In this document: in pieces, positions 1-63,435 of the stretch | How positions within the stretch are numbered: the stretch's first letter is position 1 | Layout of the letters: every line of letters starts with the position of its first letter | DNA from: a virus | Virus record (IMG/VR): IMGVR_UViG_3300035698_012504 | Span: 186,694 to 250,693 of that record | DNA length: 64,000 nucleotides | Strand: one strand, 5' to 3' | Program-made: the position numbers and the translations under genes | The notes under the pieces: model-generated | Database searches by the model: none | What the model was told of the DNA's origin: nothing | What the model saw: the letters and a program-made list of their open reading frames with translations, nothing else

Positions 1-3000
1 GTATAGCTGCAGGATTCCGAGGCATAGCCGGGCACATTGGTGCAGCAGTAGGCGAAGCACTTAAGTTCCCAATGAAAGCTATTAATCTTGGACTAGAAGC
101 TGTAAGAGCAACCATACATGCAACGTCAAAGGCGATTGGATCAGCGCTTAATACTGGATTCAAAGCATTAGGTTATGCTGTTCAAGCAGTAGGAGAAACA
201 ATTAAAGTCGGGTGGAGAGGATTCAAAGCAGTAATAACTGCACCATTTAAATTCATTTCTAATTTTCTTAAGAAACCTTGGGAAGCAATGAAGAAAGGTG
301 TAACCAAACTTAAAGATAAATTGTTAGGTAACGAAGTTATTGGTGTGGACTCAATGGGCGAACCCATTAAAGCTAGATGGCCAGGTGCAATAATTAGACA
401 CCTAGTAGGAATAAAACGTAATACAAGTGCGATGGCTGCACACTTCAGTGGTAAAGAAGAAGGAAGTGACGAAGCGCAAGAACAAAGTAGGTACCGTGGA
501 ATATGGGATAGGATTAAAAAGAAGAGAGAGAAGAAAGATGAGAAAGGTGGAGGCGGTGGAATGGGCGGCGGAGTATTTGGCGGCATGCTAGGAGGCATAG
601 GTCCCAAATTATTAGCTGGACTTATTCCGATGATAATTGCTGGAGCAATAACCGGAGATGTTAAGACAGCAATGTTTGCTGGTGGTGGAGGAATGATAGG
701 TGGAATCCTCGGTGGTATTATTGGAATGGCAGGAGGACCTGTTGGTTCTGTTGCTGGGTTTGCAGTAGGTACAGCATTAGGTGGCCTTCTTGGAGGATTT
801 GTAGTTAAACCATTATCTGAAGTATTAGGTGAACATCCTATAATGGGTGGAGTAAGCCTAGGTGTTGGTGCAGCTGTTGGTGCTGTCCTTGGTGGATTCC
901 TAGGATCAGCCGTACCAGTACTTGGTACCATATGGGGTGTTGGTATTGGTGCAGCTTTAGGTGGAGCTATAACAGGATTCGCTATACCAAAATTAGCAGA
1001 TGCATTTGGACCAGAGGTCCCAGCAATGGCTGGAACTGGAGCAGTACTCGGTGGTATCCTAGGTGGTATGCTTGCTGCTCCTACGCTTGCAGGAATCCCA
1101 TTTGGTATAGCTGCTGGTGCTGCCATTGGTGGTGCAGTAGGTACAGTCGTAGGAATTTCAGGTGGGTTCTTTGGAAACATGGCAGAAAAATTAGGACTTC
1201 CGAGAGAGATAGGTAGTGGTGCTGGTATGGGTGCAGCAGCCGGAGCAATACTTGGTGGAATAGTTGGAACTGCAATGGGTGGTCCAATTGGATTACCTAT
1301 AGGTCTCGGACTTGGTGCTGCTCTTGGACTAGCAGTTGGAGCTATCGCTGGCGGTGCTGTATGGACTATTAAAAAAATGATAGGTGTATTTGGCGGTGAC
1401 GATAAAGACATGGCTAAGGGTGGATTTGCATCTGGTGCTATGAATTCTACCTCAGCAATGGCAACCGGAGCATTAGTCGGTACTATTTTAGGTTTCATGA
1501 TGGGTGGTCCAGCAGGTGCTGGAATAGGTGCAGCAGCAGGTGCAGCAGCAGGACCTATGATTATGTTAGCTATGTCTGCAGCAAAGACTGCTAAAGAATT
1601 AAAGGCAGCAAGTGAAAGCGAGAAGAGACTTACACAGAATCAAAAAGCGGTTAGATCCATGGGTGGGGTGATGGCTGGAAAAGAAAAAGGAAAACTTGAA
1701 CGCCTAGATTCTAAGGCCGCCGAAGCAATAGAGTCTGAAGAATCTCAAGGAAAAAGAAAAGAAGAAGCTGGTCGCCTTTATAGGCAAGAATTAAGAAATA
1801 CAAAGACAGAAATGGATTCCTCAAATTCCTCAGTATTTACTGGTTGGAGAGAGAGCTCTGTATACCAACAAAGAAAATCAAAATTAGCAGAGTTGAAAAC
1901 AGATGAAGGAAAAGAGAAAAGACTCAAACAACTCGAAAGAGAAATTAAAGAGAAAGAAAGAAAACGAGCGTTAGAGGGAATGGGTCAGGGTATTGATTAC
2001 GGTAGTATGTCACCCGAAGAAAAAATAAAAAATATATCTGAACTACTTGAAGCTGCAAAAAAAGAAGGGAACCCAGACAAAGTAAGACAGTTGGAAATGA
2101 GATTAAAAAATACGAAGCTGCTGAAGGAAAGAGAAGATAATAAAATGGGTGCAGCCCCACCAAAATTCCACTCAGGTGGAATCGTAGAAGGACAACCTGG
2201 AAAAGATGTTCCTGCTATATTAAAAGCAGGAGAAGCAGTCTTAACTGAAAAGCAACAGGCTGCCATCGGAGATTTCTCTCACCCAGATAATAAAGATTGG
2301 ATGAAATCTAAATCCCTATCTAAGTCTATGGACTTAAGTGAAGACGATATGATGAAGAAAGTTATAGCAACTACTCCTCTTGGTTGGGCTATTAATAACT
2401 GGGAAAAAGTAGACGAAGGGTTAACTAAAGCTGTATTTGATTGGGTTAATAGACCATCAGATACAGATACAATGGCTGATAAGATATCCAATGCTGTCTC
2501 TAGTTCAATTAGTAATGTGGCGGGATCAGCTCAACGAGGACAGCAGGCTGGAGCAAAGGCTGGAAGATCAGTAGGTGGAGCAATTGGTGGCGGCTTTGGT
2601 AAAAAAGCAGGCGGGGCAATTGGTGGTGCTCTTGGTAAGGTAGCTGGTGGCGCTACTGGATTGTTAGATGAAGCTACTGGTGGGGCCATTGGTATGACTC
2701 CAGGAAGCGATTACTTTGATGAGCAAAAGAGAAGTATATCTGATTCCTTTATGCAAGACAATGCTCCTGCTGGCGGCGATGCAGAAGTTAATAATAAGAC
2801 AGCATCAATAGGTGCAGCTTCTATATCAAATGGTATTGCATTTCCATCAGATCATAAATATATTACTTCTCCATGGGGTCCTAGATCTGTTAGAGGTGGA
2901 AGTAGTTATCATAAAGCTGTAGACATTAGAGCTAAGACAGGCGATCCTATTTATGCTTCTATGGGTGGAGTAGTAGTAGATGCTGGTGGAAAATATGGCG

Positions 3001-3602
3001 GTGTGGTTATAGATCATGGAGGCGGATTAAAAACTAGATACCTTCATATGTCTAGTATAAATGTCGGACCAGGCCAGCAGATATCTACCGGGCAAGTTAT
3101 AGGAATGGCAGGCGGTCGTGGACCAAGTGGACCAAATTCATACCCATCTCACTTACACTATGAGATATCAAAAGACGGAGTTAAATATGATCCAGAAAAT
3201 TTCTTAAGTAAATCTGGATTTGCAATGACTGGTCTTACAAACAGAGACCCAGGACAGTTCCTAACATTCCCAGAAAATGCAGCAGTAGGTGGAATAGAAG
3301 ATCCTCCAAGTGCTAGTATAAACCAATCAATACCTACTAGAGATAGATCAGCCCTAGTAGATAATAGTGTGAGCTATGATTTAGCAAGAGATCAAGGAAC
3401 CGGAAATGCAGTTGAGAAAGGCATGGCTGGTGTAGGAGAAACAATGAAGAAAAGTCAAGAGCAAGGATTAATAGTAATAAATAATATGGTATCATCTATT
3501 AATTCTATGGCTAGTAGTTTAGCGGGTGGTGGTGGAAATAGTGATAAGTTTGATGAAGGTGCAGATCCTGATCTACATGCAATATTAACAGGTAACTTAT
3601 AG
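1..3602 (+). CDS. Tape-measure-like virion protein with C-terminal M23 (lysostaphin-type) metallopeptidase domain; 5'-partial, reading frame open to the window edge
   Basis: No stop codon between position 3 and the ATG at 72 in frame 3. Gly-rich hydrophobic segments and a Lys/Glu-rich coiled coil are present. M23 motifs read HKAVDIRA...DHGGG...SHLHYE. Confidence 0.75.
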   Translation, partial: IAAGFRGIAGHIGAAVGEALKFPMKAINLGLEAVRATIHATSKAIGSALNTGFKALGYAVQAVGETIKVGWRGFKAVITAPFKFISNFLKKPWEAMKKGVTKLKDKLLGNEVIGVDSMGEPIKARWPGAIIRHLVGIKRNTSAMAAHFSGKEEGSDEAQEQSRYRGIWDRIKKKREKKDEKGGGGGMGGGVFGGMLGGIGPKLLAGLIPMIIAGAITGDVKTAMFAGGGGMIGGILGGIIGMAGGPVGSVAGFAVGTALGGLLGGFVVKPLSEVLGEHPIMGGVSLGVGAAVGAVLGGFLGSAVPVLGTIWGVGIGAALGGAITGFAIPKLADAFGPEVPAMAGTGAVLGGILGGMLAAPTLAGIPFGIAAGAAIGGAVGTVVGISGGFFGNMAEKLGLPREIGSGAGMGAAAGAILGGIVGTAMGGPIGLPIGLGLGAALGLAVGAIAGGAVWTIKKMIGVFGGDDKDMAKGGFASGAMNSTSAMATGALVGTILGFMMGGPAGAGIGAAAGAAAGPMIMLAMSAAKTAKELKAASESEKRLTQNQKAVRSMGGVMAGKEKGKLERLDSKAAEAIESEESQGKRKEEAGRLYRQELRNTKTEMDSSNSSVFTGWRESSVYQQRKSKLAELKTDEGKEKRLKQLEREIKEKERKRALEGMGQGIDYGSMSPEEKIKNISELLEAAKKEGNPDKVRQLEMRLKNTKLLKEREDNKMGAAPPKFHSGGIVEGQPGKDVPAILKAGEAVLTEKQQAAIGDFSHPDNKDWMKSKSLSKSMDLSEDDMMKKVIATTPLGWAINNWEKVDEGLTKAVFDWVNRPSDTDTMADKISNAVSSSISNVAGSAQRGQQAGAKAGRSVGGAIGGGFGKKAGGAIGGALGKVAGGATGLLDEATGGAIGMTPGSDYFDEQKRSISDSFMQDNAPAGGDAEVNNKTASIGAASISNGIAFPSDHKYITSPWGPRSVRGGSSYHKAVDIRAKTGDPIYASMGGVVVDAGGKYGGVVIDHGGGLKTRYLHMSSINVGPGQQISTGQVIGMAGGRGPSGPNSYPSHLHYEISKDGVKYDPENFLSKSGFAMTGLTNRDPGQFLTFPENAAVGGIEDPPSASINQSIPTRDRSALVDNSVSYDLARDQGTGNAVEKGMAGVGETMKKSQEQGLIVINNMVSSINSMASSLAGGGGNSDKFDEGADPDLHAILTGNL

Positions 3603-3613
3603 GAGATAACAGA

Positions 3614-6136
3614 ATGCCAATAGGTGATTATGATATAAATTCTGGATCGTTTGAGGGAATTACAGGTGCAGATAAAGGACCGGGATTGTCTCCTGCAATG
3701 AATGTACCAGAATCGGCAGGCTCTGGACAGAACCAACTAATAGAAAATACTAGCAAAGAGAGTGCGGCAGGGATTATCGGACTCCCTCCTCAGGCCTCAT
3801 ATAATGTTGGTCCTAATACTGGAGGAGGAGGATCGACTCCTGATATATCTGGATTAATGGAGGGTATGGTATTAAATACTATGCCTGTCTTAGATATTCA
3901 TCCCATGCTTCCTGTATTTTCGAAGTCTAGTGGAGCACAAGCAGGCGCTACATTATACGGATTAAAAGATGCGGGTGCGGATTATAAAAAGATATTAACT
4001 AAGTGCGGGATAGAAGGTGCCGGGGTTAAGATACCTATACAAGTTGCATTTTTAAATGACGTATCTATATCAGAATCATTCAGTGTAGACTTTGGAGAAT
4101 CTTCTTTTGAGAGTATGGGTAATATGGCTTCTCAAAAACTTCAGGAGTTACGATTTGTAACTGGTGAAAAAGAATCAGGGAATGCATTGTCTCAAATTGG
4201 AGAAGATGGAAAAGGAGTGATGGGTGCTTTAAGTAAGTTTGGATTAGGTGCAGCTGGCGGGATTATGAACATGGCTAGTGGTGGGTTAAATGAACTAAAG
4301 GAAGGACTAGGTAATATTCTTGAGGGAGACAAGGTAGACTTTCCAAAAATATGGAAAGGTGTATCTTATACTCCATCTTATTCTGTTACCGTAAGATTAT
4401 ATAATCCCTATCCGAATGATATGACTGCCCATGAGGATAATATAGTTATTCCTGTTGCTAGACTACTAGCAATGGTTGTACCAACATCATCTTCAAACTT
4501 TACATACAGTTATCCTTTAATGTGTAAAGTAACTTGTCCTGGATTGTTTCATATAGATGCAGGATACATATCTGGAATAGATGTTATTAAAGGTGGGGAA
4601 AGTAATGATATTTCTTTTGATCAAAGAGCAGGAAGTGTAGATCTAAAAGTAACATTTCAAGAAGTATATAGTGTAATAATGTCTATGCAAGAAGGAGACA
4701 CTATTGATCCGTTGAGACCAACCTTTGCAAAATATATAGATACTTTAAGAAAGAGTACTACTCCACCAGATATAAAACGTCCGAATGGTAGCAGTAGTTC
4801 TACAAATAAAGGTATCAATTTAATGGATGATTTGATTCCACTCGCACCTGTGGGGGCTTCAGGATTAGACACAAGAGGATTAGAATCCCCATTAAGATTG
4901 AATGTAGATGACCTCGACTTAGGTAAACAATTATCTTTAAACAATGGATCATTCCTAGGACAGAATGAAGCACTCGGTGGAATGTTTAGTGCGACAGATA
5001 GTATAGGAGATCTATTTAACTCTGCGGGAGACCTAGGAGGATTAGGAGATTTAGGAGGACTAGGAGATCTAGGACAGCTTGGGGGATTAGGAGATCTTGG
5101 TGGTGTAACTGATGGTATATTCTCTCCAGTTACAAGTATATTAAGTGGGGGTGGTGGTATAACAGGAAGCCTTGGAAACGCGATGGGTGGGGTTATGGGT
5201 GGACTAGATTCAGTAACAGGAGTGGCTGGCGTCGCCAGTGGTGGGTTAGGATCTCTAGTGACTGGTGGATTAGGAGGACTAACTGGAGGATTGACTGATA
5301 TCTTGGGTGGGTTGTTGGATAGCTTAGATGGATTGACTAGTTCACTTATGGGAGATGGTGTAGGAGATATGCTGACCGGATCATTAGGTGGGTTAATGGG
5401 TAACATGGATATATTGGATAATGGATTTGGCGATACATTAAGTGGAGCATTAGGTGGACTTACTGGAGGACTTAGTGCAGATGCATTTAGTCTAGACGCA
5501 TTAACTGGTAGCCTAGATGGAGATCTATCAGGTAAATTACAAGAAGCTACTAATCTTCTTAGTGGAGTAAGTGGATCTAATCCATTAACGGCGGTTTTAA
5601 ATTCTAATATATCTGGATTGGCCGATGCCGAAGGATTAATGTCGACCATTACATCCTTAAGTGGAGGTATAACAACTGACTTATCTAGTCTTATAGAAGA
5701 TCCAATAAGCAATGCTGGATTAGATTCTAGTATATTGGATAACTTAGATGAATGTATAAGCAAATCTATAGACGTTGAATCATTCTTTGGTGGTATGGAA
5801 ACAGATATGGATTGGGTTGATAAACAAATGCCGGAGATGTTTACATTCGACAATGCTAATTATGCAGACTTATTACCTATTGCTCCGGGCGCTGCTGCCC
5901 CTGCATTACCACCCATATTCTTTACAGATTTAGCAGCGTCCGCAACATCACCAACATATTATACTGGCGCTGGAAAGGTGGATGCTGATGATATGCTAGC
6001 AATATGCGGAGCAACATCAATTATTAAAGAAGCTGGAGAGATAGCAGGTACAATGAAAGATACAATGACTGTTGCGAATGCATCCTTCGGGGTTGCAAAA
6101 AATGAAGTTAGCTTTTGGAACGGCGAGAGCGTATAG
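3614..6136 (+). CDS. Virion structural protein with Gly/Leu/Asp-rich tandem hexapeptide (DLGGLG) repeats
   Basis: 840-aa ORF with an RBS-like GGAGATAACAGA before the ATG. The protein contains (G)DLGGLGDLGGLGDLGQLGGLGDLGG and many GGL/TGGL repeats. Confidence 0.5.
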   Translation: MPIGDYDINSGSFEGITGADKGPGLSPAMNVPESAGSGQNQLIENTSKESAAGIIGLPPQASYNVGPNTGGGGSTPDISGLMEGMVLNTMPVLDIHPMLPVFSKSSGAQAGATLYGLKDAGADYKKILTKCGIEGAGVKIPIQVAFLNDVSISESFSVDFGESSFESMGNMASQKLQELRFVTGEKESGNALSQIGEDGKGVMGALSKFGLGAAGGIMNMASGGLNELKEGLGNILEGDKVDFPKIWKGVSYTPSYSVTVRLYNPYPNDMTAHEDNIVIPVARLLAMVVPTSSSNFTYSYPLMCKVTCPGLFHIDAGYISGIDVIKGGESNDISFDQRAGSVDLKVTFQEVYSVIMSMQEGDTIDPLRPTFAKYIDTLRKSTTPPDIKRPNGSSSSTNKGINLMDDLIPLAPVGASGLDTRGLESPLRLNVDDLDLGKQLSLNNGSFLGQNEALGGMFSATDSIGDLFNSAGDLGGLGDLGGLGDLGQLGGLGDLGGVTDGIFSPVTSILSGGGGITGSLGNAMGGVMGGLDSVTGVAGVASGGLGSLVTGGLGGLTGGLTDILGGLLDSLDGLTSSLMGDGVGDMLTGSLGGLMGNMDILDNGFGDTLSGALGGLTGGLSADAFSLDALTGSLDGDLSGKLQEATNLLSGVSGSNPLTAVLNSNISGLADAEGLMSTITSLSGGITTDLSSLIEDPISNAGLDSSILDNLDECISKSIDVESFFGGMETDMDWVDKQMPEMFTFDNANYADLLPIAPGAAAPALPPIFFTDLAASATSPTYYTGAGKVDADDMLAICGATSIIKEAGEIAGTMKDTMTVANASFGVAKNEVSFWNGESV
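5030..5110 (+). repeat. Tandem 18-nt repeats (gga gat cta gga gga cta) encoding GDLGGL units
   Basis: ggagacctaggaggattaggagatttaggaggactaggagatctaggacagcttgggggattaggagatcttggtggt. Confidence 0.6.
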
Positions 6137-13782: not shown

Positions 13783-14553
13783 TTATACTTTTTCCTCAAC
13801 GTAATTTTTAAACTGAGTTGAATTATATTTTCCCTGTTTGCTTAGATTTTCCTTAGCTGATAATAGTTGTAAATTATCTAATGAATTAATAACTTTAGGA
13901 TCGGTAATTCCATTTTCAACAAATGCTTTTACTGGAATAATATGATCAACGTGATAATGATACGAATCCTCTTTCCAAGCGTCAAACAAAGGATCTTTCC
14001 TTAAATGGTTTAAAAGATCTTCTCCAGAATATCCAAGTAATTTATATGTTTTAGTATTTTTTAACTGACCTGTAGATTTTAAACTATGTCTTATTAACGA
14101 TTTTGATAAACTTCTTACTCTTTCTTTTAATTTTATATACTCTCTATCAATAATCCAATTATGATTTTTTCGACCTGACTTTATTATTGATCTATATTTA
14201 TTTGCACACTTCATACATCTTTTTCCATTTTTAAAATTCGAAAAAGATATTTTAGATATGTTTCCACATTTACATATATATTTAACAGGATCGTGAGATT
14301 TTTTATATATTCCTAATAACTCGCAGTTATTATCTCTAAAATATTGAGATACATACTTTTGTGAATATTTAGGAGTTCCGGAACATTTCATACATCTGCA
14401 TCCTTGCCTAAATTTATCAAAATTTATATATGATATATTACCACAAGAACATTTATATTTCATCTTAGTTTTAGCATTCTTATAAAAAGATAGTAATTTA
14501 CAATCATTATCTTTAAAATACTTTTCTATATATTCCTGAGAATGTTTCTTCAT
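13783..14553 (-). CDS. HNH endonuclease with 2 tandem Zn-ribbon modules
   Basis: Two KYKCSCGNIS...RCMKC modules. The C-terminus has HVDHIIPVKAF...NLQLLSAKEN. Confidence 0.75.
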   Translation of the reverse strand: MKKHSQEYIEKYFKDNDCKLLSFYKNAKTKMKYKCSCGNISYINFDKFRQGCRCMKCSGTPKYSQKYVSQYFRDNNCELLGIYKKSHDPVKYICKCGNISKISFSNFKNGKRCMKCANKYRSIIKSGRKNHNWIIDREYIKLKERVRSLSKSLIRHSLKSTGQLKNTKTYKLLGYSGEDLLNHLRKDPLFDAWKEDSYHYHVDHIIPVKAFVENGITDPKVINSLDNLQLLSAKENLSKQGKYNSTQFKNYVEEKV

Positions 14554-14625
14554 TTACTTGACTCCGTATATTTCTGTAGATGCTTCTTTCATATGAACTT
14601 ACCTCATCATAATGTAACTACTTTA

Positions 14626-14640
14626 AAATTTGTCCGTAAT
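14626..14640 (-). promoter_or_regulatory. Promoter-like motif (sense strand ..ACGGACAAATTTT..)
   Basis: aaaatttgtccgtaat, 75 nt upstream of the minus-strand gene starting at 14553. Confidence 0.4.
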
Positions 14641-22000: not shown

Positions 22001-22134
22001 GGAGGAGTAGCTCAGTTGGTAGAGCGCATGCCCGTAAAAATGCCCTATTCGATATTTTCCCCTTCAAGGGTTATGAGGAACAGGGTTACTTCGCAAAAAG
22101 CAAGAGGTCGCCAGTTCGAGTCTGGTCTCCTCCA
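22001..22134 (+). tRNA. tRNA gene with a ~60-nt insertion in the anticodon-loop region (candidate intron). Anticodon tentatively GTA (Tyr) if the insertion sits at the canonical 37/38 position.
   Basis: Perfect acceptor stem ggaggag/ctcctcc. Canonical D arm tagctcagttggtagagc and T arm gccagttcgagtctggt. Between them lie 75 nt instead of 17+5, namely catgc-ccgtaaa-[60 nt]-a-gcaag. Confidence 0.5.
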
Positions 22135-23271: not shown

Positions 23272-23362
23272 GCCGGGGTCGCATAGTTGGTCGATTGCAC
23301 CGGACTTGTAATCCGGATGGCTTTACGCCGCATCGTAGGTTCGAATCCTACCCTCGGCTCCA
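23272..23362 (+). tRNA. Type-II-shaped tRNA (18-nt variable arm, 3-bp D stem) with anticodon TGT (Thr-decoding) and discriminator U
   Basis: gccgggg/cctcggc acceptor, ccgga-cttgtaa-tccgg anticodon arm, variable arm atggctttacgccgcatc, T arm gtaggttcgaatcctac, CCA encoded. Confidence 0.55.
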
Positions 23363-23838: not shown

Positions 23839-23853
23839 TTTGAGGACAAACTC
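23839..23853 (+). promoter_or_regulatory. Promoter-like motif (GGACAAA core) upstream of an HNH gene
   Basis: ttttgaggacaaact. Confidence 0.35.
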
Positions 23854-23872
23854 TTAAAAGGAGAGTTCTCGA

Positions 23873-24463
23873 ATGAGTTGGAAATCCAAAGAAGAAAGAC
23901 GCTGTATTGATTGTGATAAAAAGGGTGTTGTAGAAAGAAGACGGTGTAAGGAATGTGTTAAAGAATACAATCGAGCGCGTGCGAAGGAAAGACACGCTCG
24001 GTTGGGAAGACACAATTATGGTATATCCACATGTCCTATATGTGGAAAACCCATGACAATGTGGAGAAAGACCCAGGCAACGCATGCTACATGTATACCT
24101 AAAACGACTGGGGATTATAACTTAGTCGGGAGGTCTCCATCTGGCAGAACATTGGGTCGACAGAAGATGATTGACGCTGGCGTCGATGTCCCAACCGAAT
24201 TCGTTGTTCACCATCTGGACGAAAATCCAGATAATAACGATCTTGGGAATTTGATAGCAGTGAGGCGGTCGTCACACACAACCCTACACAGAAATCTACA
24301 GTATCATAGGTCGCTGTTCCTGAAAGAGAACAGTAAGTATTCCGAGGATTGCTGGAAACCCCTTAGAGATCATCTAACCAAAGCATGGATGGAAACGTCG
24401 AGTGCGAAGGTTCTAAAAATAGATGATATTGGGCAATCAGCAGCCGAGCCTCTAAACTCCTAA
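23873..24463 (+). CDS. HNH endonuclease
   Basis: Cys-rich N-terminus, then VVHHLDENPDNNDLGNLIAVRRSSHTTLH (HNH motif). The GGACAAA promoter-like motif lies 25 nt upstream. Confidence 0.7.
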   Translation: MSWKSKEERRCIDCDKKGVVERRRCKECVKEYNRARAKERHARLGRHNYGISTCPICGKPMTMWRKTQATHATCIPKTTGDYNLVGRSPSGRTLGRQKMIDAGVDVPTEFVVHHLDENPDNNDLGNLIAVRRSSHTTLHRNLQYHRSLFLKENSKYSEDCWKPLRDHLTKAWMETSSAKVLKIDDIGQSAAEPLNS

Positions 24464-28560: not shown

Positions 28561-30312
28561 ATGGCTGCGATATCTGTTATAAATGAGGCGACAGGTAAAA
28601 CAGTTAAGTTGAAAGATAAACAATTCTTGGCTTCTGGAGGAGAAGGAAAAGTATTTCTAGTCAATGGAGTAATATATAAAGTATGCCATGATATATCTAA
28701 TATGATACCTAAAGAAAAAATACAGGAACTATGGGCGCTGTCGTCTCATGGAAATATTGCTTGTCCAGAAGATATTCTTGTAACATCCAATAAGGCAAGA
28801 ACACCAATAGGATATACTTCCAAATTCATACCAAACTCTATCCCTATTGCTAAGCTTGTCTCGAATGGGTTCAGAACCAAACAAGGATTTGGTGCAGAAC
28901 AAACTGTAGAATTAGTAGAGAGTTTAGTTAAGATGGTTAAGTTTGTTCATTCTCATCCAGGAATTTTGATAGTAGATCTTAATGAATTTAATTTCCTAGT
29001 CAATGAATTGAAGTTAACAGACCCATTTGCAATTGATGTTAATTCATGGCAGACACAGAACTTTCCTGCTTCTGCTATAATGCTACATATAATAGATCAT
29101 AAGACCAGTAAGTTTTCAAAGTTAACAGATTGGTTTTCATTAGGAGTTGTATCTACTATGTTGTTCTTAGGAGATGGTCCATACGGAGGAAGACATCCGA
29201 ACTTCGCTGCAAGAGATATCAAAGCAAGACAAGCAGCAACCGCTTCCATATTTGGACCAGGCGTAACCCTTAATAAGAATATAAGATCATTCGATGTTAT
29301 TCCAGATCAGTATAGAAGCTGGCTGGAGTCAATGTTTCAAAAAGGAATGAGACTTCCTCCTCCTGATGTGTTGGGACTGATGAGTCTGGAGAGCATCGTA
29401 GTGAAATTACTTACTGGTAGTGACTTATTTGAAATAGTAAAATTGTCAGAATATACTTCTGATGTTATTGAATGGCGCTCCGTTAATAATACAGTGATAT
29501 GTATTACAAAGAACTCATTGATTGTAGGGAATGAAAGCAAAAAAATTAGACGGAATGATTTAGATGTAGTAGTAACTGATGAATCACGTACACCAATTGC
29601 TATCGCTATTAAGAAAGATTCAACTACCTCAGGATTACCATCAGGATACGGTCTACTTTCTCTGGTGAATTTCTTAACAAATGATCCTATAGGTGGAGCA
29701 TCCTTGGCTGCGAAAGGATTCTTTGTTGCTGGTAATAGAATATATGTTCTCTCAGTAGATAAAGTAATTGAATTAGGTATTCGTGAAATGGGAAGTAAGA
29801 TAGTTGCTGCTGTTAATAAAGAGTGGGCATTTCAAAGCTTGTCAAGTACAGTATATTCTGGATTAATATATTCTGACATATTCGGCAAACCATACCTTAC
29901 AATCCCATATGCTGTAGGAAAATGTCTGAAGCGACACTTCCCAGAACTTGACGGGATCAAAATTACAGACGCCAAATATGAATCAGGTGTCGCATTTGTA
30001 ATAGGTGCAGACCAGGATGGTAAATATAACAAATATATATTTGTGTTCGATGAGAAACACAGCACACACACTACAATAGAAGAAAAGGATATTACTCCAA
30101 GCGATATAAATTTCACTGTTCTTGATAATGGAACGGTTGCATATATAGATTCAAATGACGCACTGGTACTCTTCAAGAAAGATGCACCAGATAAACGAAA
30201 AGAAATAAGAGACCCAGCCGTACATGGCGGGATGACTCTAACGAAAAGAGGGACTCAGGCAATGGCATTTGTAGGCAAGACGGTCTATACCATTTCCATG
30301 AAGACCCCATAG
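28561..30312 (+). CDS. Protein kinase-like (Ser/Thr kinase fold) protein
   Basis: Gly-loop SGGEGKVF, VIYKV lysine, HSHPGILIVDLNEFNFLV catalytic-loop-like segment. It has a long C-terminal extension. Confidence 0.5.
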   Translation: MAAISVINEATGKTVKLKDKQFLASGGEGKVFLVNGVIYKVCHDISNMIPKEKIQELWALSSHGNIACPEDILVTSNKARTPIGYTSKFIPNSIPIAKLVSNGFRTKQGFGAEQTVELVESLVKMVKFVHSHPGILIVDLNEFNFLVNELKLTDPFAIDVNSWQTQNFPASAIMLHIIDHKTSKFSKLTDWFSLGVVSTMLFLGDGPYGGRHPNFAARDIKARQAATASIFGPGVTLNKNIRSFDVIPDQYRSWLESMFQKGMRLPPPDVLGLMSLESIVVKLLTGSDLFEIVKLSEYTSDVIEWRSVNNTVICITKNSLIVGNESKKIRRNDLDVVVTDESRTPIAIAIKKDSTTSGLPSGYGLLSLVNFLTNDPIGGASLAAKGFFVAGNRIYVLSVDKVIELGIREMGSKIVAAVNKEWAFQSLSSTVYSGLIYSDIFGKPYLTIPYAVGKCLKRHFPELDGIKITDAKYESGVAFVIGADQDGKYNKYIFVFDEKHSTHTTIEEKDITPSDINFTVLDNGTVAYIDSNDALVLFKKDAPDKRKEIRDPAVHGGMTLTKRGTQAMAFVGKTVYTISMKTP

Positions 30313-31119: not shown

Positions 31120-31692
31120 ATATATTAAATAGTGACTAACAGGTTTCATCTTTGTGGGGGTGACCTGGTTTCGACGTGGGTGAATGGAAGGATGAGTTGC
31201 GTACCGAGGACTCCGATGGCCTCGTAAAAAATCGGAAAACGCTTAATTGCGAAAAACGTAGTAGACTTCGCTAGCCGTGTGGCTTCCAAGATCGCAGATG
31301 TTGTGGCTCCGGCCCCCGCGTTCGCACTTGCTGCCTAATCGGATGAACTAGCTGTCTCGTTCTAGACGCCCTCTATGGGATGAGACAACGACAGAGGGAC
31401 TGGACTCGGTAAGATGTAATCACTTGTAACCGAGAAGAGTACTTACTAGTGGTATAGGCGAAAGGAACCGTGCCTGACGGGTTCTGAGCTGAAACTAAAT
31501 GAAAGGCTATGTACGTAGACGCTTGTGCGGATACACTGACGGACGCGGGTTCGATCAATCTGGTCGACTTGGGAAGTAATTCCCTCGATTAAAGAGTGCT
31601 CATACGGTGAAAGCTAAGTCGTGCAATACGATAAGCCAATACCGTGGGGTTGAGGAAGAAATTCCAAAAGCCCTGTAGAGACTTATAGACAC

Positions 31693-32136
31693 CTAACTCT
31701 CACTGAGACATGGTGTACTAGGATGGAAAAATTCTTCCTGAAATTGTTCCTTTGCTATAGTGGCGGCGTTGTTGTACTTCCCATTCCGTGGGGTTACTTC
31801 AATATACCGATCTATCAGAAGATCGGTACGTCGGATCTTATCCGGTTCTCGGAGATAAGGTCGAAGTTGTTCTAGGAATTGTATGGCCTTCCTACCTTGT
31901 ATTGCCCAAACAAACGACGGTTTGTGGTGATCTTTGTAGGTTTTCTTATGGGATATGCACCCACCATAATTGGCTTTCATGAACTCTAGTAGTTCATACG
32001 TTGTGCTTGCAATAGAAACAATGGGTCTTCTCCATAGATCTGATCGTTTCTGTTTGGTCACCGTTACACTTCCTTCGCCATCAAACAACCCAGCAGCATA
32101 GGAATCATTCAGTTGTGAATCTTTCATAATACGCAC
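31693..32136 (-). CDS. LAGLIDADG homing endonuclease (single-motif, I-CreI-like)
   Basis: YAAGLFDGEGSV motif. 147 aa, typical of homodimeric LAGLIDADG enzymes. A promoter-like TTTGTCC motif lies 20 nt upstream inside the intron. Confidence 0.8.
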   Translation of the reverse strand: MRIMKDSQLNDSYAAGLFDGEGSVTVTKQKRSDLWRRPIVSIASTTYELLEFMKANYGGCISHKKTYKDHHKPSFVWAIQGRKAIQFLEQLRPYLREPDKIRRTDLLIDRYIEVTPRNGKYNNAATIAKEQFQEEFFHPSTPCLSES

Positions 32137-32151
32137 TCCTCTTGAAGTTTA

Positions 32152-32165
32152 TAGTTTGTCCTCAT
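32152..32165 (-). promoter_or_regulatory. Promoter-like motif (GGACAAA core) inside the tmRNA intron, upstream of the LAGLIDADG ORF
   Basis: tagtttgtcctcat. Confidence 0.4.
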
Positions 32166-32245
32166 TAGGATAGGGCTTCGAGATGAAGGTATAGTCCAGG
32201 CCTTTGCGAAAGCATTGGATCCACCTGTCCCGCCACCTCCACCAT

Positions 32246-32323
32246 CGGGTAGTAGCGCAGTCCGGTTAGCGCACTTGCTTTGGGAGCAAGGGGTCGTGAG
32301 TTCGAATCTCACCTACCCGACCA
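32246..32323 (+). tRNA. tRNA-Pro (anticodon TGG)
   Basis: cgggtag/ctacccg acceptor, tagcgcagtccggttagcgca D arm, cttgc-tttggga-gcaag, gtgagttcgaatctcac T arm, discriminator A, CCA. It starts 2 nt after the tmRNA CCA. Confidence 0.8.
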
Positions 32324-33220: not shown

Positions 33221-34018
33221 ATGCCAAGCAATGAAAATAGAAATCAGCTGCATGCGCTTCTTGCAGCCGATAACGATAAATCCAAACTACTTATCGGATT
33301 TCTCAGAGAAGCACAAAAGACGTTCCAGGAGCGGCGAGGCCACTTCGACGGACTCACCACCTCGGTCGAGTTCTACGATGATGAGCGAGCGCTCCAAGAG
33401 AACAAAACCGAAGTGAAGCGGATGGAAGAGACCGTCTACGGAAAGCTTCGGTATGTGTTCGCACATGCTGCACAGGCATTCAATCTCGGTACATCCAAAG
33501 AACGCACCAACACCATAGCCACAGCTGACTTGATCGTCAATGGGGTCACGGTGGCGAAAGACGTGCCAGCGGCGGAGCTTCTGTATCTAGAGAAGAGGAT
33601 GAGTACCATTCGCGAACTGCTTCATCAAGTTCCAACACTTGCTCCGGGTAAGGTTTGGACTGAGTTGACAACTGTAGCGGAAGAAGGGGTATACTCTTCC
33701 CCAGAGGAGCTGACCACAAGAACGGAAAAGGAAACAGTCTCACTCGAACTTTCACCGGCTACGGAAAAGCATGCCGCACAAGTCCAACCCCAGGTGAAGG
33801 ACGTTCGTGTAGCGAAGATACTGAAGTCCCACCAGTCGAGTGCGGTTACGCCCCTCACCAAATCAGGGATTCTGGCGCGTTGTGATGACATCATCTCGGC
33901 AACCCGTGCCGCACGAATGGCTGCGAACACTGCAACAGTGAATCAGCAGACATACTCCGAGAAACTTCTTGCGTACATTCTGGATGGAGACGAAGCTCTG
34001 TCAGAATCCTCCGAATAG
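33221..34018 (+). CDS. Hypothetical protein on a GC-rich island
   Basis: 265-aa ORF preceded by AAAGAAAGGG. Confidence 0.45.
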   Translation: MPSNENRNQLHALLAADNDKSKLLIGFLREAQKTFQERRGHFDGLTTSVEFYDDERALQENKTEVKRMEETVYGKLRYVFAHAAQAFNLGTSKERTNTIATADLIVNGVTVAKDVPAAELLYLEKRMSTIRELLHQVPTLAPGKVWTELTTVAEEGVYSSPEELTTRTEKETVSLELSPATEKHAAQVQPQVKDVRVAKILKSHQSSAVTPLTKSGILARCDDIISATRAARMAANTATVNQQTYSEKLLAYILDGDEALSESSE

Positions 34019-45631: not shown

Positions 45632-47350
45632 TTATACAACGAAGAAGTTCAGGTGAATTTGTTCAACAACCCTTGTCGGATTGAGAGTAATATTCGCTTG
45701 GATTCTCTTCGCTTTAATGTCATACTCAGATGCACCAACAGTAACACCAAATGAATATAATCCTCTTCTGTCTTGAACTGTCTTCAAGAAAGCAGAGATG
45801 TTATTGCTAATTGCACCCCAGGTTGCGGTATCGTTTAATTCAAATATATAGAATCTGCAGAACTGTTCTAGAGCACGCTTAATATAAAGAATCAATCTCA
45901 TAATATTAAGATCCTGTAGTGCAGTTGGTCTTACCTGTGAAGTAAGTTGTCCATAAACTGTGAATCCTACATTAAATTTAACAATTGGGTTAATCTGTTT
46001 CAGGTAGAATTGATCTCTCTGAGACAGGTTCGGGCTGAATCTTAGTTCTTGAATCTGAGCAATTGTCGCTCTGTTAAATCCAGCTGGAGCATACCAAAGT
46101 TCTGCAATGTTATCCGTGTAAGGAATTATATTTGCCATGTGGTATACAGGAGTCATCCAAAGATAACGTCCAGTAAACTTATCAAATATTTTTGAATATG
46201 GTTCATATATCGCAGCGTATCTAGTATTAATACCGTAGGTATCACCTCCAGATTCTGATCTAGAATCGTATGCTGCTTGATAGTTAACGTTGTCGCCATT
46301 ATCAATTATAGCAATACAATCCTGTCTTAGATCGCGGGTTAATTCTACAATGTTTCTCTTGACATTTGTGCTGTATCCACCGTCAAACACTATATTAAAA
46401 TAGTGGTCTTCTGTATCAATAACAGATTCTAATGCTTGACCCGTTAATGGGTTTGTAATGTCACCAGTGTATGCTAATGATAATATTGAATCACCAACAG
46501 TTGTAGTTACTGCTCCGTTTGCATCAAATAGAGATCCAGTTGATCCGTTCTCTAGATTAAGTGCGCCATCTAGGAATGGTATATCAAACTCACAAGATCC
46601 TTCTACTGCTGCTAAGCAGGCTACTTCATCTGCAATACAATTTAAATGTCTACTATATCTATTAACAATATCTTCGATCCACATGGACTCACCGTCGTCG
46701 TCAAGTCTTGTGCTTAAGAAAGATACCATATAGGTTTCAATTATCTCAAATTGATCAGCGCCTGTATCTGGATTTACATCGTTTTGTTTTTCATATACAT
46801 CCATTACATAAATGTCTGGTTTATCAGTTTGGACAGTTGTATTTGCTGGTTTTGTTATTTCAACTCTAAACCTATCATACCAATCACCACGACCAACTCC
46901 ATAAAACACACAGCATGTATCTTCTGAGCCTGTCTCATAAGTATTAGTAAGTAGTGTTGATAGTTCGTTTAATGTATTAACTCCTGCTTCAGATGTGGCG
47001 ACTGCGGATGCTGTACCATCAGCGCCGTACTCACCAGCTCTTTCAGCCATTAATATCAAGTTTGAATATGCAGCGTCTGTCGGAAGACATCTAACTACAT
47101 ATAGGGAATCAGATTGTTTCAAGAACGAATCTGCTACATACGGTCCTTGACCGAATGCCTTTTTCGCATAGGTGATATCTGGTCTACCGAAGTCTAGATA
47201 AAAGTCTCTAGCATTAGTGAAGATCAGTTGATTATCCGGACCATGCTCGGAAATGATGCAAATGAAACCAATGGTTGATGGTACATTTTGCACGAATTCA
47301 GACAGGTCTATAATCTTAGTATATACACCTGGAGAAATATGTTGTGCCAT
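45632..47350 (-). CDS. Contractile tail sheath protein
   Basis: The N-terminus MAQHISPGVYTKIIDLSEF...GFICIISEHGP...FGRP matches the conserved sheath N-terminus (SPGV..E.D.S......G...G.F.GP). 572 aa. Confidence 0.85.
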   Translation of the reverse strand: MAQHISPGVYTKIIDLSEFVQNVPSTIGFICIISEHGPDNQLIFTNARDFYLDFGRPDITYAKKAFGQGPYVADSFLKQSDSLYVVRCLPTDAAYSNLILMAERAGEYGADGTASAVATSEAGVNTLNELSTLLTNTYETGSEDTCCVFYGVGRGDWYDRFRVEITKPANTTVQTDKPDIYVMDVYEKQNDVNPDTGADQFEIIETYMVSFLSTRLDDDGESMWIEDIVNRYSRHLNCIADEVACLAAVEGSCEFDIPFLDGALNLENGSTGSLFDANGAVTTTVGDSILSLAYTGDITNPLTGQALESVIDTEDHYFNIVFDGGYSTNVKRNIVELTRDLRQDCIAIIDNGDNVNYQAAYDSRSESGGDTYGINTRYAAIYEPYSKIFDKFTGRYLWMTPVYHMANIIPYTDNIAELWYAPAGFNRATIAQIQELRFSPNLSQRDQFYLKQINPIVKFNVGFTVYGQLTSQVRPTALQDLNIMRLILYIKRALEQFCRFYIFELNDTATWGAISNNISAFLKTVQDRRGLYSFGVTVGASEYDIKAKRIQANITLNPTRVVEQIHLNFFVV

Positions 47351-47416
47351 AATAGTTTCCTCCTAAAATTTATTAGTTACTTATTATTAAATCACGAAAA
47401 TAAAGAGGTCATCTTT

Positions 47417-47431
47417 ACAATTTGTCCTCAA
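47417..47431 (-). promoter_or_regulatory. Promoter-like motif (GGACAAA core) upstream of the tail sheath gene
   Basis: acaatttgtcctcaa. Confidence 0.4.
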
Positions 47432-61828: not shown

Positions 61829-63346
61829 TTATGCCTTGGCTTTTCTAGCCTGCCAAGATGAAATCTTGTTCTGGATAGAACGTCTGCATTTCTCAGGATT
61901 CTTAGCATCTTTACATGCGCGAGACTGAGAGCGTAGGGCTTTAATTGCTTGGTCAGCAGCTTGTCCACGATTCTTACCAGAACCTTTAGCTTTCTTATAT
62001 GCTAAAGCTCCTGCGGCAGAAGCTGCGGCCACGCCTGTAACAGCCAACCCAACTTTACCAGCTTTGGATTTCATAGCCTTGGCAACGTTACCAGCTGCGT
62101 TGGACAATCCTTTTCTCATTTTACCAACTTTTTCATTTCCTTTAACTGCACCAATTTTACCAGTTACATAACTCTTGGCACCAGCAGCTTTTCTAGCAAC
62201 ATAACCAGCTTTATCTTTAGCTACGGCCTTGATTTTATGTTTTCCAAGAGCTGTGCCTGTTCTAGATACAGCATTACCTGCTCTAGTTGCGCCTTTACCA
62301 GCAAGTGCTGCAGCTCTCTTACCACCTTTTACTGCAAGATTTTTAGCAGCTATAATCTGTTTTCTTACAGCTTCTATCATTTTACCAATTCTTTCTCTAG
62401 CAGCACCGGCTGCCTTACTTAACTTGGCTCTTAACTCTTTAAGTTTCAGCTGAAGCTTCCATACCGTACCTCTAACTTTAGAGTCTGTTACGGAACCACC
62501 AGAACGGCTGGATGTAGCAGTATACTCGGATAGTTCAATCTGACTCCACTCTTCAAGAATTGATGGGCTTCCTTCAATTTCAAAGATCTTGTTTGATTCA
62601 ACTATTAACTCAGTAACTTGTTGGATAGATGGGGTAAGATTATGAGTACCATATGCTAGATTATATTGAATTGCTTCATCTATAATGTAAGCCATTACTG
62701 ATTCATCAGTAATAGACCATCTTTCAAATAATGATCTAAGTCCAGCAACATCTAAGTCACCTTCTTCTAGTACATATATATCTTCGTCATCATCCTCGTA
62801 GTCTTCTGCTAACAGATCTTCGTCGAGATCTAAGTCTTGAGCACCTTCGGATAAATAAGAAATAAGATTCTCATTTACACGACCAGTAGATTCAGTAACA
62901 TATCCGTCACTAATATCTTCTGTTAATGATGCTTCGCCTTCAGTTTCATATCTTAATTTGGCTTCTTCAAGGGACAAAGCTACCTCATAAGTAACAAGAT
63001 CTAAAGAGACGGGGGCGTCGGCTTCTTCAAGATAATCGGGCTCAAGGGCTCCAATCATCTCAAGAATTGGTTGAATTGTTTCGTTCATAAAATTGGCAAT
63101 GTGCTCTTCTTTAAATACAGTATTCTCAATGACTTCCAAATGCCGAAGCTTATCTTCTGCTGGAGTGGAACTCTCCAATACTATACCACGAAGAGAATCT
63201 CTCATCGCTTCTTCTGTAAGAAAATCAAGCTCGGCATATATTTCAGAATCTGATTCGTCAATATCAATACCGTCTTCTATTCCTTGAAGGACTCCGTCAC
63301 TGCCTTCAGTGAGATAAAAGTCCAAAATTTCAAATTGCTTACTCAT
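61829..63346 (-). CDS. Virion protein with acidic N-terminal half and very basic Lys/Ala-rich C-terminal half
   Basis: 505-aa ORF. Promoter-like motif about 80 nt upstream. Confidence 0.4.
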   Translation of the reverse strand: MSKQFEILDFYLTEGSDGVLQGIEDGIDIDESDSEIYAELDFLTEEAMRDSLRGIVLESSTPAEDKLRHLEVIENTVFKEEHIANFMNETIQPILEMIGALEPDYLEEADAPVSLDLVTYEVALSLEEAKLRYETEGEASLTEDISDGYVTESTGRVNENLISYLSEGAQDLDLDEDLLAEDYEDDDEDIYVLEEGDLDVAGLRSLFERWSITDESVMAYIIDEAIQYNLAYGTHNLTPSIQQVTELIVESNKIFEIEGSPSILEEWSQIELSEYTATSSRSGGSVTDSKVRGTVWKLQLKLKELRAKLSKAAGAARERIGKMIEAVRKQIIAAKNLAVKGGKRAAALAGKGATRAGNAVSRTGTALGKHKIKAVAKDKAGYVARKAAGAKSYVTGKIGAVKGNEKVGKMRKGLSNAAGNVAKAMKSKAGKVGLAVTGVAAASAAGALAYKKAKGSGKNRGQAADQAIKALRSQSRACKDAKNPEKCRRSIQNKISSWQARKAKA

Positions 63347-63421
63347 TATTAATTCCTCCTATTTAATTGCAGGATATTTGCACTTATTTTTGTTTTACGT
63401 TATTATAAAGCAAAACCTTTA

Positions 63422-63435
63422 TAATTTGTCCTCAA
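63422..63435 (-). promoter_or_regulatory. Promoter-like motif (GGACAAA core)
   Basis: taatttgtcctcaa. Confidence 0.4.

Follow-up and report, generated by a model that had tools for sequence, protein, structure and literature searches.

A tmRNA gene of a large tailed phage with a predicted group I intron and an antisense LAGLIDADG endonuclease gene

The split tmRNA gene

The DNA analyzed here is a 64,000-nucleotide stretch of a viral genome (IMG/VR record IMGVR_UViG_3300035698_012504, positions 186,694 to 250,693); we refer to the whole stretch as the window and number it from its first base. Positions 31156-32244 of the window are a transfer-messenger RNA (tmRNA) gene with a total length of 1,089 nucleotides (nt), of which 672 nt separate its two exons. 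A family-specific profile and covariation identify this intervening segment as a group I intron, and its opposite strand encodes a predicted LAGLIDADG homing endonuclease. The main features of the locus are as follows.

31156-31555, plus strand: tmRNA exon 1 (Rfam RF00023; ARAGORN on the joined sequence), containing the 5' acceptor strand, D-like region, PK1, tag frame, pseudoknots, T-stem 5' strand and T-loop nt 1-6
31249-31338, plus strand: tag reading frame, with resume codon GCG, 29 codons (AKNVVDFASRVASKIADVVAPAPAFALAA) and UAA; the frame ends AFALAA-stop
31556-32227, plus strand: predicted group I intron, 672 nt, IA-type with P7.1/P7.2, between T-loop nt 6 and 7 ("position 7")
31693-32127, minus strand: predicted homing endonuclease gene, 144 amino acids from the ATG at 32127, with a single LAGLIDADG motif, I-CreI-like, filling the P7.2 loop
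32148-32161, minus strand: promoter-like motif GGACAAACTATAAA (GGACAAAcTATAAA) in the P8 loop, 21 nt upstream of the endonuclease ATG
32228-32244, plus strand: tmRNA exon 2, containing T-loop nt 7, the T-stem 3' strand CCCGC, CACCUCC and ACCA

ARAGORN found no tmRNA in the raw 64-kb window, though it detected ten transfer RNA (tRNA) genes there. When 31156-31555 was joined to 32228-32244, as an earlier note on this DNA had proposed, the program called a 417-nt tmRNA. The Rfam tmRNA model RF00023 also recognized the gene, scoring 102.4 bits (gathering threshold 47) on 31164-31557, with exon 1 alone. Its alignment ends in the middle of the T-loop and lacks only the last 15 model positions, which correspond to the 3' half of the T-arm and the 3' strand of the acceptor stem. 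The missing parts lie in exon 2. The 5' sequence GGGGGUG (31156-31162) stands opposite 3' CACCUCC (32234-32240) to form a tRNA-Ala-like acceptor stem, which carries the G3:U70 pair, discriminator A and CCA (32241-32244). Only when 31555 is joined to 32228 is there a T arm, GCGGG-UUCGAUU-CCCGC, and the predicted spliced junction reads ...GGGUUCGAU|UCCCGCC... (31555/32228). A GGCCUCGUAAAAA box is present at 31219-31231. Each of these elements had been proposed from the sequence, and each was found where it had been placed. The same is true of the tag frame starting with GCG at 31249: ARAGORN gives an identical tag, AKNVVDFASRVASKIADVVAPAPAFALAA*, of 29 amino acids (positions 94-183 of the joined tmRNA). 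The tag had been singled out as long, which it is, though it is not unique, since tags of 24-28 amino acids (both 24 and 28 residues) occur in other viral tmRNAs. The gene lies within a tRNA cluster, and a tRNA-Pro gene starts at 32246, 2 nt past the end of the tmRNA CCA.

The locus is 100% identical over the contig overlaps in contigs of four independent datasets, two of which span the whole gene. The split gene is therefore not an assembly chimera.

The intron and its antisense endonuclease gene

The insertion site corresponds to T-loop subsite 7 of intron-form tmRNA genes, and removal of the insert restores the T-loop. U31555, at position -1, pairs with G31563 in P1, and G32227 is the terminal base of the intron. 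This splice-site U.G pair is invariant in all 28 introns that we aligned. Because a U at -1, a terminal G and a restored 7-nt T-loop are needed together, the boundaries are unique; only 31555/31556 combined with 32227/32228 supplies all three, and alternative splice boundaries were rejected.

We built a profile hidden Markov model (HMM) from 48 compact (~260-350 nt), endonuclease-free tmRNA introns of bacterial genomes, with the exons removed, and searched it against the window. Exactly two matches were obtained, both on the plus strand. The first covers 31558-31732 (E 4.6e-25, model positions 6-181) and the second 32118-32224 (E 6.1e-11, model positions 188-271). The model is thus interrupted only between positions 181 and 188, and therefore the endonuclease gene is a ~385-nt insertion in one loop of an otherwise normal tmRNA intron.

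The secondary structure was derived from the window sequence itself and scored on a MAFFT alignment of the 28 introns, ten of which had the endonuclease gene excised. It reads P1, P2, P3, P4, P5, P6, P6a, P7, P7.1, P7.2, P3', P8, P7' and P9, and includes the following elements.

31563-31567, plus strand: internal guide sequence GUCGA (3' strand of P1); G31563 pairs with U31555 at the 5' splice site
31594-31599, plus strand: P3 5' strand GAGUGC, pairing with 32133-32138 (100% of cells; 6/6 pairs covary)
31680-31686, plus strand: P7 5' strand GACU(U)AU, pairing with 32191-32196 (99.4% of cells; essentially invariant), presumed to contain the guanosine-binding helix
31723-31728, plus strand: P7.2 5' strand AUGGAA, pairing with 32122-32127 (5/6 pairs covary); the HMM match breaks here
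32122-32127, plus strand: P7.2 3' strand UUUCAU, whose final CAU is the complement of the endonuclease start codon
32133-32138, plus strand: P3 3' strand GCACUC, overlapping on the minus strand the endonuclease Shine-Dalgarno sequence
32140-32183, plus strand: P8 stem, UCUUGAAG (32140-32147) with CUUCGAGA (32176-32183) and a 28-nt loop (7/8 pairs covary)
32191-32196, plus strand: P7 3' strand AUAGUC (from the covariation alignment)
32201-32218, plus strand: P9 hairpin with a GAAA tetraloop (6/7 pairs covary across the family)

Across the 28 introns, 87.9% of alignment cells are paired in this P1-P9 structure, compared to 36-44% when the partners are slid by 1-3 columns. Compensatory changes on both sides were found for 45 of the 72 pairs, and the observed values were reached in none of 500 shuffles. 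The GNRA-capped P2 and P3 are paired in 100% of cells and covary at all positions, and P7, J8/7 and the guide sequence are invariant in the family and unchanged in the window copy. P7.1 and P7.2 helices between P7 and P3' are a hallmark of subgroup IA in the Michel-Westhof classification. The Clostridium botulinum tmRNA intron has been placed in subgroup IA3. In the present structure P7.1 and P7.2 lie between P7 and P3' and both covary, which fits subgroup IA, with IA1, IA2 and IA3 not separated. The T-loop intron that the earlier note had drawn at 31556-32227 is thus borne out by the family profile, the covariation, the splice-site U.G pair and the terminal G.

The sole long open reading frame (ORF) of the intron is on the minus strand, antisense to the tmRNA. 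It encodes 144 amino acids from ATG, or 147 when read from a GTG (31693-32136), and its LAGLIDADG motif is YAAGLFDGEGSV. The translation passes the Pfam cut-off for LAGLIDADG_3 (PF14528; 24.6 versus 22.5) and matches phrog_5046 (E 4e-23). We collected 41 homologues of 132-216 amino acids (mostly 133-146), which share ~40-56% identity. The D16-G-E18-G catalytic motif is invariant in 22 homologues, and the acidic catalytic residue ends the LAGLIDADG motif. Y10, A12, G13, K97 and a TPRNGKY block are invariant or nearly so, and the window ORF keeps every family-invariant residue. A family profile searched against the Protein Data Bank finds I-MsoI (E 5.8e-8) and I-CreI. The AlphaFold model has a predicted local distance difference test (pLDDT) score of 91.7, and its top Foldseek matches are the homodimeric enzymes I-CvuI, I-CreI, I-MsoI, I-Vdi141I and I-TnaI (probability 1.0, template modeling score up to 0.69). 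A Shine-Dalgarno sequence, GAGGAG (32141-32136, minus strand), lies 8 nt before the ATG. By its sequence and modeled fold, the minus-strand ORF is an intact I-CreI-like LAGLIDADG endonuclease of the single-motif, homodimer type, in agreement with the earlier call of a single-motif LAGLIDADG ORF on the strand opposite the tmRNA.

The plus-strand ORFs of the intron encode 32-64 amino acids and are unrelated, and a sense-strand ORF was rejected as the endonuclease. A gene located outside the intron, as in Bacillota, was also rejected, given that exon 2 lies beyond the endonuclease gene in the window. NCBIfam has no family for this protein, and a single-protein scan of IMG/VR yielded no confirmed relative. 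A tblastn search of GenBank phages returned distant relatives only (at most 37% identity), none of them inside a tmRNA intron.

Gene and ribozyme share sequence at both ends of the ORF. The P7.2 3' strand ends in the complement of the endonuclease ATG, and the Shine-Dalgarno sequence is the complement of P3'/J3/8 (overlap region 32122-32141). At the other end, the complement of the codons for a conserved C-terminal FFHPS is the conserved RNA sequence ACUAGGAUGGAA, which comprises J7.1/7.2 and the P7.2 5' strand (window 31716-31728); AUGGAA of that strand is the complement of the codons for (F)FH. The FFHPS ending is absent from free-standing, non-intronic relatives, so the RNA encoded opposite seemingly accounts for at least part of the constraint on this ending. 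The two strands here are under overlapping constraints, one from the protein-coding gene and the other from the ribozyme.

The earlier note had also drawn attention to a promoter-like TTTGTCC within the intron, a motif that it had seen upstream of phage structural genes. The 7-mer lies at 32155-32161 on the plus strand; read in the direction of the endonuclease gene, it is GGACAAA. Taken alone it is not significantly enriched in the window, with 15 occurrences against 9.2 ± 3.1 expected, but its plus-strand sites concentrate right upstream of minus-strand genes, where they share a longer motif that reads (tga)GGACAAAnTnTAAA on the gene strand. The extended motif GGACAAANTNTAAA has six sites with at most one mismatch, whereas 0.77 are expected, and none of 100 shuffles reached six. 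The claim is supported: the extended motif is correctly oriented in the intron and is also found upstream of the tail sheath gene. Besides the intron copy, the sites are these.

14622-14635, minus strand: exact copy, upstream of ORF 13783-14553
17096 region: motif site
23844-23857, plus strand: copy with one mismatch, upstream of an HNH_3 endonuclease gene (23873-24463) in the tRNA cluster
47414-47427, minus strand: exact copy, upstream of the tail sheath gene (45632-47350)
63418-63431, minus strand: exact copy, upstream of ORF 61829-63346

The exact copies are intergenic, and each precedes a gene on its own strand. We also observed that the motif precedes both endonuclease genes, the LAGLIDADG gene in the intron and the HNH_3 gene.

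Related introns carry a different candidate element. The antisense strand of the invariant P7 3' strand reads TGGACT, and a TANNNT hexamer lies 16-18 nt downstream of it in 8 of 11 endonuclease-bearing introns (L005, L007, L011-L013, L017, L018 and L020) compared to 3 of 48 endonuclease-free introns. The probability of this contrast is ~1e-5 by our hypergeometric arithmetic, which ignores sequence relatedness. TGGACT and TANNNT may be the elements of a sigma-70-type promoter for which the ribozyme core supplies the sequence. The window, one of the 11 endonuclease-bearing introns, has no TANNNT hexamer in this region (32140-32200) and carries the phage motif there instead. It is a reasonable, if indirect, reading of these patterns that the endonuclease gene would have its own antisense promoter, exchanged in the window for one of phage type.

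Recurrence, free-standing relatives and phage setting

The same layout, in which exon 1 is followed by a position-7 intron with an antisense endonuclease gene in P7.2 and then by exon 2, occurs in at least six other distinct viral or phage-like contigs. It was found in the phage-like contigs L005/L006, L007 and L010, which encode endonucleases of ~50% identity. A DNA core pattern with one variable gap identified five viral contigs; the IMG/VR contigs L120, L123 and L124 have the full layout, the gene in L121 has decayed to fragments and L122 has no gene. The layout is also present in metagenome-assembled genomes of Gammaproteobacteria and Bacteroidota (L011-L014, L016-L020; tmRNA gene lengths 1,014-1,101 nt) and, as judged by strand and position, in ~12 Chloroflexota loci, amounting to ~20 bacterial genomes overall. 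Across the loci compared, members of this endonuclease family that lie within the intron are, as a rule, antisense.

Intron-form tmRNA genes have been catalogued (PMC11915505). An intron is present in 1,703 of 421,434 bacterial tmRNA genes (0.4%), at position 7 in 1,658 of the 1,703, and the T-loop subsites in use are 2, 3, 7 and 8 (PMC11915505). The catalogued introns are at most 700 bp long and the longest intron-form gene is 1,116 bp; among 883 unique sequences, 36 contain LAGLIDADG genes, most of them in the "P7.1 region" (PMC11915505). The catalogue is silent on the orientation of these genes. Its phylum table lists bacteria and archaea only, with no row for viruses, and phages are mentioned solely for the form lacking a coding sequence (PMC11915505). 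When we searched the literature for bacterial or phage group I introns with an antisense endonuclease gene, only eukaryotic ribosomal DNA (rDNA) cases such as I-DirII came up. The kind of element is therefore known, and the earlier note overrated how unusual the arrangement is, as the layout recurs in the contigs and bacterial genomes listed above and tmRNA introns with LAGLIDADG genes have been published; the phage setting and the explicit antisense reading are apparently undescribed in the literature searched. ARAGORN also found no tmRNA in eight related viral intron-form loci. Because standard annotators miss them, intron-form phage tmRNA genes are invisible in current annotations, and this locus and its relatives show that such genes recur in large uncultivated phages.

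Two of the phage-like contigs have peculiarities of their own. In L010, a 52-kb contig, the tmRNA gene at 2260-3130 (minus strand) is a circularly permuted, two-piece gene (RF04321, 51 bits). The T-loop intron and its antisense endonuclease gene are found again here, in the acceptor piece. Downstream of exon 2 (...TCCCGCCTGGTCCACCA) come a 29-nt hairpin and the coding piece (GGGCCAGACCTGGTTTCGAC..., tag AANDVSFRAVA), in that order. This combination of permutation and intron is a class absent from the published catalogue. In L005 (2390-2410, minus strand) the tmRNA ends ...CACCTCCACTA, so that its genomically encoded 3' terminus is CUA instead of CCA.

We then considered members of the endonuclease family beyond the intronic layout. 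A wider survey took the 80 best bacterial loci that encode the family and parsed a tmRNA gene beside the endonuclease gene in 56 of them; in all 56 the tmRNA gene has an intron, as against the 0.4% of bacterial tmRNA genes in the catalogue. Eight of these loci have the intronic, antisense layout. In 17 loci, from Bacillota, the two genes are convergent, with the endonuclease gene directly after the tmRNA gene. In the remaining 31, mostly from Gammaproteobacteria, both genes are on the same strand, and a stretch of 60-420 nt with a terminator separates the tmRNA gene from the endonuclease gene downstream of it. In every parsed free-standing case (L026-L090; L008/L040 from Halalkalibacter wakoensis) the adjoining tmRNA has an endonuclease-free intron at position 7. 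In collaborative homing, a free-standing endonuclease targets the insertion site of an intron and lies beside the intron that protects this site (PMC2988022). The free-standing pattern is what collaborative homing would be expected to produce, the cleavage targets being putative. The three layouts provide a broad natural data set on how a free-standing endonuclease and an intron become one mobile element. In one locus (L068), a free-standing endonuclease gene lies between the tmRNA 3' end (1384-1401) and a second partial copy of it (1945-1962; ...GATTCCCGCCGCCTCCACCA), an arrangement that resembles the insertion of a small island at this 3' end.

The window comes from the genome of a large tailed phage. 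Genes for a baseplate wedge, a baseplate hub, a T4-type baseplate protein, a tail sheath and a tape-measure-like peptidase protein are present in it, together with those for nicotinamide phosphoribosyltransferase and NAD synthetase (NAD salvage) and at least ten tRNA genes. Among 50,697 GenBank phages, we found no near relative by DNA similarity for the locus or the 24 kb around it; in a more distant DNA search of the same regions against GenBank phages, the tRNA-Pro was the sole match. Upstream of the tmRNA gene is a protein-kinase-like ORF (28561-30312, plus strand; Pkinase 27.5 bits, under the cut-off) and downstream a DUF7873 ORF (33221-34018, plus strand). DUF7873 also adjoins the intron-form tmRNA gene of L010, which suggests that the two phages are related.

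Several RNA features of these phages were noted in passing. An over-long tRNA-like gene in the window (22001-22134, plus strand; Rfam tRNA, 48 bits over 134 nt) was read by ARAGORN, with introns allowed, as tRNA-Leu(GAG) interrupted by an insertion of 41 nt, less than a group I intron would need. The window tRNA-Thr (23272-23362) is also long, at 91 nt, and a 102-nt tRNA match lies directly upstream of the L007 tmRNA (3439-3540, minus strand). L007, a 123-kb phage-like contig, encodes TROVE/Ro60 and vWA in one gene (4905-5441) ~1.5 kb from its tmRNA. Weak, sub-threshold matches to Rfam YrlA (Y RNA-like) occur in the tRNA clusters of L001, L005 and L010.

Proposed function, alternatives and known systems

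We interpret the locus as a phage-encoded, intron-form tmRNA gene with an IA-type intron and an antisense homing gene of the homodimeric LAGLIDADG type, and give this interpretation a probability of roughly 0.9. The tmRNA gene would be transcribed with the neighboring tRNA cluster. The 672-nt intron would fold with P1 formed by the exon end UCGAU and the guide GUCGA, and would excise itself by two guanosine-initiated transesterifications. Joining of T-loop nt 6 to nt 7 would yield the 417-nt tmRNA with G3:U70 and a 29-codon tag ending ALAA, which presumably works with the SmpB protein of the host. The endonuclease gene is probably transcribed from the phage late-type promoter GGACAAAcTATAAA in the P8 loop, and the most likely target of the enzyme is the T-arm inverted repeat of intron-less tmRNA genes (GCGGG N7 CCCGC; for example, a duplex with GGACGCGGGTTCGATTCCCGCCACCTCCACCA). 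Cut genes would then be repaired with the intron-bearing copy as template, so that intron and endonuclease gene would spread together, that is, by homing. The exact 32-nt spliced junction is uninterrupted in 27 other viral contigs, 25 of which have an ARAGORN-called tmRNA, and targets are therefore available.

Several points weigh against this interpretation. P1 of the window copy has only five pairs, and P9 carries two U.U mismatches. The generic Rfam group I model RF00028 gives the insert 15.8 bits, well under its gathering threshold of 50 (E 0.35). No SmpB gene was found in a search of the 64-kb window. A generic scan for sigma-70 promoters and terminators found nothing relevant, and nothing on the minus strand at the intron; the promoter is a prediction from its motif. 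No close relative of the window phage with an intron-less allele was found in the GenBank phage DNA searches or among the contigs with the junction. Splicing, endonuclease expression and cleavage are steps that we infer, as we do promoter activity, the cleavage target and current mobility. The RF00028 result could be taken to mean that the element no longer splices and that a mobile element has left a tmRNA pseudogene with no functional product, and the P9 mismatches point the same way. However, the bacterial tmRNA intron of Halalkalibacter wakoensis scores just 20.7 bits, equally weak, and RF00028 is therefore insensitive to the tmRNA-intron family. All RF00028 seed sequences are non-bacterial (10.1101/2020.01.27.920355), which together with the 385-nt insertion plausibly causes the low score. 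The earlier note had held that failure of a covariance search on the intervening sequence would speak against its intron; with this model that reasoning would have misled. Moreover, all core helices of the window copy are intact and match a strongly covarying family, nothing has changed in the invariant P7, J8/7 and guide sequence, and both exons are perfect: they supply the acceptor stem, the T arm, and the tag frame with its stop codon. We consider a pseudogene hardly credible.

Doubt about the endonuclease gene is easier to entertain. The intron may splice and the tmRNA function while the gene is an inert passenger, unexpressed or non-cutting and inherited only vertically. Only 36 of 883 tmRNA introns in the catalogue retain an endonuclease gene (PMC11915505), the gene has decayed or is missing in relatives (fragments in L121, none in L122 or in Bacillota introns), the window lacks the sigma-70-like antisense promoter of 8 of 11 endonuclease-bearing introns, and the intron-less sister allele was not found. 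Nevertheless, the ORF is full length with all family-invariant residues, DGEG and K97 included, its structure model is confident (pLDDT 91.7), its Shine-Dalgarno sequence is good, and the phage-type promoter motif is correctly placed and oriented. We judge an inert passenger unlikely. The enzyme might instead be primarily a weapon, made late to cut host ssrA or the tmRNA genes of competing phages while the intron protects the phage's own copy. Such a role would suit the conserved T-arm/acceptor target, uninterrupted in the 27 viral contigs, the sharing of the promoter-like motif with late structural genes, and the fact that free-standing family members always adjoin intron-protected tmRNA genes. 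The idea is inferential throughout, and bacterial chromosomes, where a weapon makes no sense, have the layout just as well; we regard it as quite improbable.

Returning to the interpretation as an intron with a homing gene, it can be extended to the whole family. Somewhat tentatively, as a possibility short of being probable, we suggest that the tmRNA intron and the endonuclease family form a two-part system kept at every stage of collaborative homing. The stages may run from free-standing and co-directional, through free-standing and convergent, to captured in antisense within the P7.2 loop. In the captured form, the complement of P7' may serve as the -35 element, P8 as the -10 element and the complement of J3/8 as the Shine-Dalgarno sequence, and the P7.2 stem may hold both the start codon and the C-terminal codons. 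The bacterial-type antisense promoter may then have been swapped for a phage late-type promoter in the window phage. If all of this were true, the late-made nuclease could convert or destroy the intron-less tmRNA genes of co-infecting phages, and possibly host ssrA. The locus in any case offers a compact case, open to experiment, in which the endonuclease gene of a bacterial-type group I intron is read from the opposite strand. The promoter of this gene is seemingly adapted to the phage's own transcription programme, and the locus adds a small new I-CreI-like meganuclease whose predicted target, the tmRNA T-arm, is highly conserved.

The closest known counterparts are the bacterial intron-form tmRNA genes (Williams 2002, cited in PMC11915505; catalogue in PMC11915505). 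They resemble the window in the position-7 T-loop intron with U at -1 and a terminal G, in an intron shorter than 700 nt within a gene of ~1.0-1.1 kb, and in LAGLIDADG genes in the P7.1/P7.2 region, and their intron core is homologous to that of the window by sequence and structure. The window copy differs in being phage-borne and in the phage-type promoter motif that replaces the sigma-70-like elements of its relatives. The td, nrdB and sunY introns of T4, with I-TevI-III (PMC2988022), are likewise group IA introns of a large virulent phage with an endonuclease gene in a peripheral loop, expressed from its own phage middle or late promoter, as predicted for the window. In contrast, the T4 introns interrupt protein-coding genes and carry sense-strand endonuclease genes of the GIY-YIG or HNH families.

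An antisense endonuclease gene with its own promoter is known from I-DirII of the Didymium iridis rDNA intron (PMC3073962; L2066 introns, PMC9548176). That system is eukaryotic and nuclear, with a Pol II promoter, a spliceosomal intron, a poly(A) tail, a His-Cys box enzyme and an rRNA host gene. Collaborative homing at cyanophage psbA (PMC2988022) is comparable to the free-standing relatives beside endonuclease-free tmRNA introns, whereas in the window the endonuclease gene is already inside the intron. I-CreI, I-MsoI and I-CvuI share with the window enzyme the single-motif, ~150-amino-acid alpha-beta-beta-alpha-beta-beta-alpha fold and an expected pseudo-palindromic target, but the identity is 15-22%, the host gene is tmRNA rather than 23S rRNA, and the window gene is antisense to its host gene.

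Intron-less phage tmRNA genes, such as ssrA of Sphingobium phage Lacusarx and those of 25 IMG/VR contigs, are similarly often located in or near a tRNA cluster. Lacusarx also encodes a distant homologue of the endonuclease (L091; 31% identity; NC_041927.1, 74324-75212), annotated as "HNH endonuclease", directly upstream of the annotated and apparently intron-less ssrA, on the same strand and with an overlap of ~50 nt. The tmRNA genes of the 25 IMG/VR contigs are detected directly by ARAGORN, and their T-arm/acceptor sequence is identical to that of the window.

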